A stretch of DNA of 64,000 nt from Acidimicrobiia bacterium (GTDB lineage Bacteria; Actinomycetota; Acidimicrobiia; Acidimicrobiales; AC-14): positions 4,754 through 68,753 of the forward strand of contig JAHFUP010000016.1 of NCBI GenBank assembly GCA_023265025.1. Direction: 5' to 3'. Position numbers and translations under genes: made by a program. Positions 61,652-61,875 of this stretch are shown in pieces (positions within the stretch are counted from its first letter, which is position 1; each line of letters opens with the position of its first letter). A model generated the notes under the pieces. That model saw only the letters and a program-made list of their open reading frames with translations, searched no databases and had not been told where the DNA came from.

Positions 61652-61698
61652 ACCGTGGGTACATACTCAAATCACAGAAGCAACAACAAGGAGGAGTC

Positions 61699-61875
61699 GT
61701 GGCATACCGCTTCGCGTGAAGGGATGAGAACCACGCCTGCCGTTGGCAGGGCTCAGGAGCAACCGAGGAAGAGCTGATGGCCAAGGTCGCCGACCATGTG
61801 AAGAAGAAGCACAACGTGGAGGTCACCACCGGAACGATCGCCGCCTACGTGCGAGGCAAGGTCCGCCAGGGCTGA
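61699..61875 (+). CDS. DUF1059-like small protein with an in-frame TGA at codon 7 (candidate selenocysteine, or a nonsense mutation)
   Basis: AAGGAGGAG (61688-96) then GTG 61699. Reads VAYRFA-TGA-RDENHACRWQGSGATEEELMAKVADHVKKKHNV..*. TGA 61717-19 occupies the first Cys position of the F-x-C-x-D-x4-C..EEL pattern. Confidence 0.45.

Follow-up and report, generated by a model that had tools for sequence, protein, structure and literature searches.

Within the window (the whole stretch of DNA analysed here, 64 kb in length) a small forward-strand gene at 61699-61875 comprises 58 codons and a terminal TGA, and its codon 7 is itself an in-frame TGA (61717-61719). A Shine-Dalgarno sequence, AAGGAGGAG (61688-61696), is read directly and is separated by 2 nt from a GTG start codon at 61699, from which the frame runs V-A-Y-R-F-A-TGA-R-D-E-N-H-A-C-R-W-Q-G... 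to the stop codon at 61873-61875. The Shine-Dalgarno sequence, frame, in-frame TGA and stop are all located where a sequence-only reading of the same DNA had placed them. When the codon 7 residue (U) is read as Cys, the 58-aa product matches Pfam DUF1059 (PF06348) with 49.3 bits (cut-off 21.1), residues 3-56 corresponding to positions 2-55 of the 56 in the profile; the DUF1059 pattern given by the sequence-only reading therefore holds. The family signature C-x6-C...H-x4-H takes the form U7-x6-C14 plus H33-x4-H38, the latter being the conserved histidine pair of DUF1059 (H-V-K-K-K-H, 61795-61812). The DUF1059-like gene that had also been noted at 47754-47960 does exist, but it lies on the minus strand and gives a weaker, partial match (32.3 bits, profile positions 8-45 only). 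No NCBIfam model matches either DUF1059 gene of the window, and crude screens of the window for other TGA-interrupted genes or SECIS-like hairpins gave nothing convincing.

Several other features overlap or follow this reading frame. A hairpin (GCCTGCC-GTT-GGCAGGGC, 61735-61752) follows the in-frame TGA, and the RNAalifold consensus defines a proposed bSECIS core at 61736-61750, with stem arms CCUGC (61736-61740) and GCAGG (61746-61750) and the loop CGUUG (61741-61745) between them. The codons for His12, Ala13 and Cys14 (61732-61740) double as the 5' arm of this hairpin, Cys14 being the second Cys of the U-x6-C pair. A 32-codon ORF beginning at an internal ATG (Met27; 61777-61875) is what gene callers annotate in place of the full gene. 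Thirteen nucleotides past the stop codon a repeat search identifies the start of a perfect 11-bp GC-rich inverted repeat (61888-61923, forward strand) that has no T tract and gives no match in a terminator consensus scan; it may mark the end of the transcript.

The TGA at codon 7 is conserved well beyond this genome. A peptide-pattern scan of one genome per GTDB species recovered 24 loci in 23 Acidimicrobiales/Actinomycetota metagenome-assembled genomes (MAGs) with 63-91% identity, and codon 7 is a stop codon at all 24 (23 TGA and one TAA). JGI metagenome contigs were scanned with a DNA pattern that specified parts of the hairpin region and left codon 7 free; the 82 matches include 78 family members, every one of which has TGA at codon 7, and four unrelated chance matches. 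Five contigs encoding the identical C-terminal 32 residues likewise all have TGA; one of them, L032, is an independent sequence from ENA that matches the window exactly over 1.5 kb around the gene, including the TGA, such that a base-call error peculiar to the window is unlikely. An alignment of orthologues had been suggested as a check, and 94 of the 97 distinct orthologous coding sequences (CDSs) pooled from public metagenomes and the 23 GTDB MAGs have TGA rather than TGC or TGT at codon 7; the exceptions (one each of TAA, GGA and TGG) are all one base away from TGA. TGA-bearing orthologues extend down to about 60% protein identity, with frames intact and under purifying selection, and neither TGC nor TGT was seen at this codon within the close clade. 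A TAA codon is not decodable by tRNA-Sec, but the MAG with the TAA locus (L017) also carries a TGA version of the gene (L022), and L017 is therefore probably defunct or misassembled. The GGA (Gly) variant is present on one short contig. The TGG (Trp) variant (P0002) represents one lineage found in two independent samples with the hairpin intact, reflecting either a recent loss of selenocysteine (Sec) or the dispensability of residue 7.

Patterns of nucleotide variation argue that one frame is translated on both sides of the UGA. All 31 orthologous CDSs of the first set are 58 codons long, align without gaps and share the position of the stop codon. Nucleotide diversity among the orthologues at codon positions 1/2/3 is 0.29/0.30/0.49 in codons 2-6, 0.19/0.19/0.43 in codons 8-12, and 0.23/0.28/0.55 in codons 19-26. 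Because diversity is highest at the third position both before and after the TGA, and the Pfam match covers residues 3-56, translation of the whole frame is indicated. A Shine-Dalgarno-like motif is present no more than 16 nt from codon 1 in 70 of 73 metagenome orthologues and at nearly all of the genome loci. TGA is also the gene's own terminator in 26 of the 31 first-set orthologues; of the 87 pooled CDSs with a stop at codon 59, 63 use TGA there. Codon 27, the putative internal start, is not ATG in 23 of the 97 orthologues, which have ATC, AAG, CTG and other codons for Ile, Lys, Leu and other residues. The gene is systematically missed by gene callers: in a collection of 5.8 billion proteins the only two full-length products are the GGA (Gly, P0001) and TGG (Trp, P0002) variants, and the public protein sets otherwise contain 32-aa fragments beginning at Met27 (P0003, P0004, P0008, P0012 and P0016), with P0003 representing 64 member sequences.

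When the Gly variant P0001 was used as query against 1.84 billion cluster representatives in an exhaustive HMMER search, 15 matches were obtained, and the full-length homologues P0005, P0006, P0007, P0010, P0011, P0013, P0015, P0018 and P0019 (37-56% identity, 40-56% for the nearest, P0005 having 56%) have Cys at column 7. A UGA that lines up with a conserved Cys is the classical mark of a Sec codon (PMC13188914), and the sequence-only reading was correct in assigning the TGA to the first Cys of the DUF1059 pattern, as these more distant homologues have Cys in exactly that column. The Cys-form proteins (P0005, for example) resemble the product described here in length (57-60 aa), in domain, and in the C-x6-C...H-x4-H signature, but their DNA has TGC at codon 7 and lacks the hairpin. 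They also differ at His12, which is variable in the Cys forms and invariant in the Sec forms, whereas His33 and His38 are invariant or nearly so in an alignment that includes the Cys forms.

RNAalifold analysis of 31 and of 95 sequences identifies one conserved element, a 5-bp stem (CCUGC/GCAGG) with a 5-nt loop that starts 21 nt after the UGA, and an optional C:G pair closes this stem. The sequence-only reading had described a 7-bp hairpin with a bulged G; the hairpin is present and its 5-bp core is conserved, but the outer G:C pair and the bulged G are not, since the third base of codon 18 varies. The loops in the 97 sequences are CGUUG (63), AGGUG (19), AGUUG (12) and CGGUG (3), corresponding to N-G-[G/U]-U-G, and the minimum free energy (MFE) of the hairpin is between -8.0 and -15.7 kcal/mol in all 97. 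Bacterial SECIS elements are constrained to a 3-9 nt loop, a 4-16 bp stem, a spacing of 16-37 nt and an MFE of -7.5 kcal/mol or below, with a G in the first two loop positions (pattern N-G-[G|U]-N-N), in the consensus model of Zhang and Gladyshev as summarised in PMC13188914. The gene's hairpin falls within all four constraints, and the proposal of a SECIS-like hairpin at a suitable distance from the UGA is thus upheld by both its conservation and its dimensions. It resembles the bacterial SelB/bSECIS paradigm (Escherichia coli fdhF and fdnG) in being a short GC-rich stem-loop after the UGA whose small apical loop opens with G-[G/U], but differs in that a minimal stem of 5-6 bp is conserved, with no lower stem and no bulged U; RNAalifold in wider windows likewise found no conserved lower stem. 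An Rfam scan of 61600-61950 (E <= 10) gave no SECIS or other relevant family.

The hairpin alone is not beyond chance, and the weight is borne by conservation, the reading frame and the Cys alignment rather than by fold energy. A 71-nt fold of the window's sequence has z = +0.82 relative to shuffles, and comparable hairpins (five perfect pairs and a loop N-G-[G/U]-U-N) occur eight times in the two strands of the window (128 kb), from which about 1.8 chance coincidences of a TGA with such a hairpin are expected per window. RNAalifold shows no covariation, all five stem pairs being invariant with no pairs showing double changes, and three of the five are forced by the Cys-x-Trp-Gln codons, so that constraint on the RNA and constraint on the protein are not distinguishable from the stem alone. 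Evidence for constraint at the RNA level is indirect, although it points one way. Among the 31 sequences not picked by the hairpin pattern (the unselected set), loop codon 15 is CGT in 25 of the 28 cases in which it encodes Arg, whereas in the rest of these genes CGT accounts for only 2 of about 125 Arg codons; none of the 97 sequences uses CGC, otherwise the most frequent Arg codon, at this position. Residue 15 itself varies between Arg and Ser and the loop G-[G/U] is kept; codon 13 is GCC, TCC, CCC or ACC, in which the residue changes and both pairing C's remain constant. Residues 13, 17 and 18 are nearly fixed in the Sec forms and free to vary in the hairpin-less Cys forms, and in two loci (L023 and L024) one pair is broken and the stem is extended by an alternative route. 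We also note that the family members caught by the hairpin pattern all have TGA at codon 7, a codon at which the pattern placed no restriction.

The lineage contains other probable Sec genes. In two of the carrier MAGs, JAHFUR01 (L175/L322) and CADCTB01 (L324), a TGA-containing DsrE-like gene is located directly 3' of selB. It is 118 codons long, matches Pfam DsrE over its full length with 22.5 bits (just below the 22.7 cut-off), and has a conserved in-frame TGA (..VAPG-U-A..) followed by a 7-bp hairpin with the loop AGUUC. This loop occupies nt 25-29 counted from the U of the UGA, which is the position of the CGUUG loop in the DUF1059 gene; DsrE-like proteins are a known selenoprotein family, and the two genes are thus alike in occurring in the same MAGs, in having an in-frame TGA and in the identical loop offset, but they encode unrelated proteins and differ in stem sequence. 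In two related Acidimicrobiia MAGs, selD genes with a TGA at the active-site Cys (L204 and L194) have GC-rich stems capped by GUU, with different stem sequences and with loops 11 nt further from the UGA. The N-G-U-U-N loop seems to be typical of the lineage, and these similarities suggest that it is recognised by the SelB of these bacteria.

Genes for Sec synthesis and insertion are also present among the carriers. Acidimicrobiia selA-selB operons were located with a DNA pattern for the SelA PLP motif, and two further scans, in which the queries were first a SelA from Acidimicrobiales and then the C-terminal portion of SelB from a carrier, covered the best 80 loci each. At least nine of the 23 carrier MAGs have selA and/or selB on other contigs; among the matches listed, JAHFUR01, JBBQRO01, CADCTB01, DATACM01, JBHELO01, JALYYN01 and JBOGIE01 have both, DATASA01 and JBPCJQ01 have selB only, and six of the nine fall in the 12-member clade closest to the window. 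The search for Sec machinery that the sequence-only reading had recommended is therefore positive for selA and selB; the available flanks of the carriers' selAB loci showed neither selC nor selD, tRNA-Pro(CGG) being the only tRNA gene there. Both tRNA-Sec genes and selD are present at other Acidimicrobiia loci, and selA, selB, selC and selD are reported to occur throughout Actinomarina, which represents another order of the class (2026 preprint, 10.64898/2026.04.03.716425). The 64-kb window itself contains no tRNA gene by tRNA scan, and no sel genes were identified when E. coli SelA, SelB and SelD were compared by tblastn with the window and with the first loci.

Taken together, the conservation of the TGA, the Cys homologues, the fit of the hairpin to the bSECIS model and the presence of selA and selB in carriers support the earlier proposal that a DUF1059-like protein has a Sec/Cys pair and that a SECIS-like hairpin lies downstream, and 61699-61875 very probably encodes a 58-residue selenoprotein of the DUF1059 family. 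Ribosomes would initiate at the GTG at 61699 behind the strong Shine-Dalgarno sequence, SelB recruited by the hairpin at 61736-61750 would deliver Sec-tRNA(Sec) at the UGA (61717-61719), and translation would continue to the ordinary TGA stop codon at 61873-61875. Sec7 would then substitute for the first Cys of the C-x6-C...H-x4-H signature and, together with His12, Cys14, His33 and His38, would most likely form a small metal-binding or redox-active (selenenylsulfide) centre. From comparative sequence data we infer both the insertion of Sec and the binding of SelB to the hairpin, as well as the chemistry of the site.

Other accounts of the TGA codon fit these observations less well. The UGA could be read inefficiently by a near-cognate tRNA, most likely tRNA-Trp, with the help of a weak context and the hairpin, its leakiness setting the level of full-length protein independently of Sec. 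The TGG (Trp) variant with its intact hairpin in two independent samples would be consistent with such programmed readthrough, and so would the base that follows the UGA, which in all 97 sequences is A (74) or C (23), a weak termination context. Trp insertion would not explain, however, why the UGA is exactly at the family's conserved Cys, and although a single mutation to TGG would allow full expression, TGG is found in just one of 97 sequences. The loop also fits the SelB-type G-[G/U] motif, its offset is that of the DsrE-like Sec gene adjoining selB in the same MAGs, and selA and selB are present in carriers. Given the TAA locus, the TGG lineage and the absence of a Cys form from the close clade, we keep a small probability for Sec-independent readthrough, which we consider very unlikely. 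It is also hard to credit that the locus makes two products, a 6-codon leader peptide ending at the TGA and a real 32-residue protein starting at the ATG at 61777, with the upstream part being regulatory. The 32-aa ORF is indeed what the public protein sets contain, and a purine-rich GAGGAAGAG precedes this ATG, but 23 of 97 orthologues have a codon other than ATG at position 27, codons 8-26 vary in the manner of coding sequence in the TGA's frame and specify the DUF1059 domain's N-terminal half with the second Cys, and it is codon 1 that is preceded by a strong Shine-Dalgarno sequence in 70 of 73 sequences.

A single-base change turns TGC into TGA, and in a gene as small and unannotated as this one the TGA could be a recent nonsense mutation or a sequencing error, or the mark of a pseudogene, which was the alternative given by the sequence-only reading. 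We reject it as having next to no probability: TGA is present in 94 of the 97 distinct CDSs, from 23 MAGs and dozens of metagenomes, with frames intact and under purifying selection, the identical 1.5-kb stretch on an independent ENA contig includes the TGA, and the occurrence of 97 distinct sequences excludes repeated copies of a single contaminant. A code in which UGA specifies an amino acid (Trp or Gly, for example) throughout the genomes of this lineage would have precedents: such a change has been reported for some Actinomycetota (Eggerthellaceae), and UGA-to-Trp reassignment has been reported in the phylum (PMC13462651). Nonetheless, the same gene ends in TGA in 26 of 31 orthologues, and the use of TGA as its usual terminator indicates that the code is not reassigned; the window, with 70% GC, has an ORF structure in keeping with code 11, carriers have selA and selB, and a genome-wide change of this kind seems extremely improbable.

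The Sec-encoding DUF1059 genes share the residues F5, U7, D9, H12, C14, W16, L26, H33, H38, V40 and T46 as invariant positions (codon 7 being TGA in 94 of 97). C14, H33 and H38 are invariant in all 97 sequences, and H12 and C14 are so in all 31 that were not picked by the hairpin pattern. An AF2 model has the arrangement beta-(short helix)-beta-alpha-alpha with moderate confidence (pLDDT 75.6); a sequence search of the PDB gave no relative, and a Foldseek search with the model gave no fold relative there. The pattern of invariant residues is consistent with a small metal-binding or redox centre in which Sec would replace a Cys ligand. The gene neighbourhood is of little help with regard to function. 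Only in the closest clade (L001-L012, and about a quarter of the metagenome matches) is the gene located between an SNase gene and a YdjC gene, and further out in the family the neighbours are unrelated; when the SNase ORF is called from its first start codon, its exact product is not on record. In contrast to these SNase-YdjC or variable contexts of the Sec form, the Cys-form gene for P0005 is in a cluster with HycI-TPR, BirA-like and two small-protein genes. A DUF1059 gene has been reported in group 1m [NiFe]-hydrogenase gene clusters, and the arrangement at the P0005 locus matches such a cluster (PMC9561532); we treat this resemblance as a lead, not a result. It is conceivable, though rather doubtful, that the product, a free-standing protein of 6.5 kDa, contains a metal centre to which Sec7 contributes a selenolate ligand alongside His12, Cys14, His33 and His38; it would then be a new kind of small Se-metal protein of dry-soil Acidimicrobiales and may be functionally linked to the DUF1059 proteins of group 1m [NiFe]-hydrogenases. 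Were this so, the link to hydrogenase could involve, for example, nickel or iron handling or electron transfer for trace-gas oxidation.

New selenoprotein families still turn up regularly, and the DUF1059 small protein is apparently one that is new and uncatalogued. Within the literature collection searched, no paper joins DUF1059 with the term selenoprotein and none names PF06348. The family table of a 2026 review of the prokaryotic selenoproteome includes DUF3179, DUF166, DUF1573, DUF1858, DUF523 and DUF466, and PF06348/DUF1059 is absent from it (PMC13188914). There is no DUF1059 match in the deep-Sep supplements; the family may already be listed under another name, for example in BSepDB. 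The recoding mechanism is the known bacterial one, and it is as a selenoprotein that the family is new. Among the catalogued small metal or redox selenoproteins (such as the dual CXXC motif small protein, the YHS-domain and CopZ-family 2Fe-2S proteins, and MbdU; PMC13188914) there are proteins that are similarly short and have Sec for Cys in a Cys-rich, presumed metal or redox motif, but they belong to other folds and families, and the motif here is U-x6-C with His partners rather than UxxC, CxxU or CU.

The comparative data indicate that the predicted DUF1059 selenoprotein is widespread in soil Acidimicrobiales, and it would add a family to the bacterial selenoproteome from soil and desert members of this order, a phylum and a habitat whose selenoproteins are poorly charted. 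It also provides a first functional handle on DUF1059, because the position turned into Sec is normally the chemically critical one, and residue 7 is thereby indicated as an active or ligand residue. A systematic annotation error is exposed at the same time, with the public sets containing only the 32-residue fragment or the rare Gly and Trp variants. Finally, three or four unrelated Sec genes share the N-G-U-U-N loop at a fixed offset, suggestive of a simple SECIS rule specific to the lineage, which could serve to mine Acidimicrobiia genomes for further selenoproteins.

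A few orthologues of the DUF1059 gene depart from the TGA present at codon 7 in the window. One orthologue (L017:715-891, contig JALYZO010000200.1) has TAA at this codon with the rest of the frame and the hairpin intact, and the same metagenome-assembled genome (MAG) holds a second DUF1059 copy, at locus L022, with TGA. Point variants with GGA or TGG are present at L026:54-230, L027:5001-5177 and L028:2151-2327; the GGA (Gly) variant is found on a single 1-kb contig, the TGG (Trp) variant is identical in two sequencing runs, and the hairpin is kept in both. Among the full-length products of the clade, the public protein collection contains these point variants alone.

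A DsrE-like gene of 118 codons lies directly 3' of selB in the MAGs JAHFUR01 and CADCTB01 (L175:13384-13740, equivalent to L322:7300-7653, and L324:7333-7689). In both it has a conserved in-frame TGA in the context ..VAPG-U-A.. and a hairpin whose loop (AGUUC) spans nt 25-29 after the UGA, and it is likely to be a selenoprotein gene. Its product scores 22.5 bits with Pfam DsrE, under the cut-off of 22.7, and has no match in an NCBIfam search. A TGA is also present at the active-site Cys position of selD in two Acidimicrobiia MAGs, with the motifs SHGAG*GCK (L204, at ~1023, plus strand) and SHCAG*AGK (L194, at ~14541, minus strand); two hairpins follow the TGA in each, the second with a 6-bp GC stem and a GUU loop. 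Cys is encoded at this position in eight other selD genes among the matches listed.

In most of the Acidimicrobiales sel loci listed (L156-L235 and L322-L341), a tRNA-Pro(CGG) gene is located ~6-8 kb downstream of selA-selB (for example L175:18442-18516), and this nearly constant spacing points to strong conservation of gene order at the sel operon. The tRNA-Sec genes of ten Acidimicrobiia loci (L168, L169, L182, L194, L209, L216, L217, L223, L229 and L231), in several of which the gene is immediately 3' of selD, share an invariant 3' part, GGCGGGTTCGATTCCCGTCC[A/G]CCTCCGC, which offers a possible selC probe for the carrier MAGs.

In the window, a perfect inverted repeat with GC-rich 11-bp arms set 14 nt apart (GGCCGGAGCCG / CGGCTCCGGCC, 61888-61923) starts 13 nt past the DUF1059 stop codon; it lacks a T tract, and may work either as an actinobacterial-type factor-independent terminator or as a site bound by a protein. 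Upstream of the locus, the genes called on the near-identical contig L032 include Rrf2, HEM4 (uroporphyrinogen-III synthase) and a double NIR_SIR sulfite/nitrite reductase; the identity of L032 with the window near its 3' part places the region at ~52960-56174 of the window, and there is therefore a sulfur/sirohaem assimilation cluster 5-9 kb upstream of the DUF1059 gene.

The closest Cys-form homologue, P0005 (L236:1-3806, NCBI JBOGHJ010000634.1), is preceded by genes for a HycI-TPR protein, a 140-aa protein, a BirA-like protein and two small proteins, a set matching the accessory genes described for the group 1m [NiFe]-hydrogenase cluster (PMC9561532). No hydrogenase genes were noticed within the 64-kb window. 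The window contains a divergent Cys-containing DUF1059 paralogue (47754-47960, minus strand; 32.3 bits, over profile positions 8-45 only), after which, also on the minus strand, comes a gene (46787-47668) whose 293-aa product matches TPR weakly.
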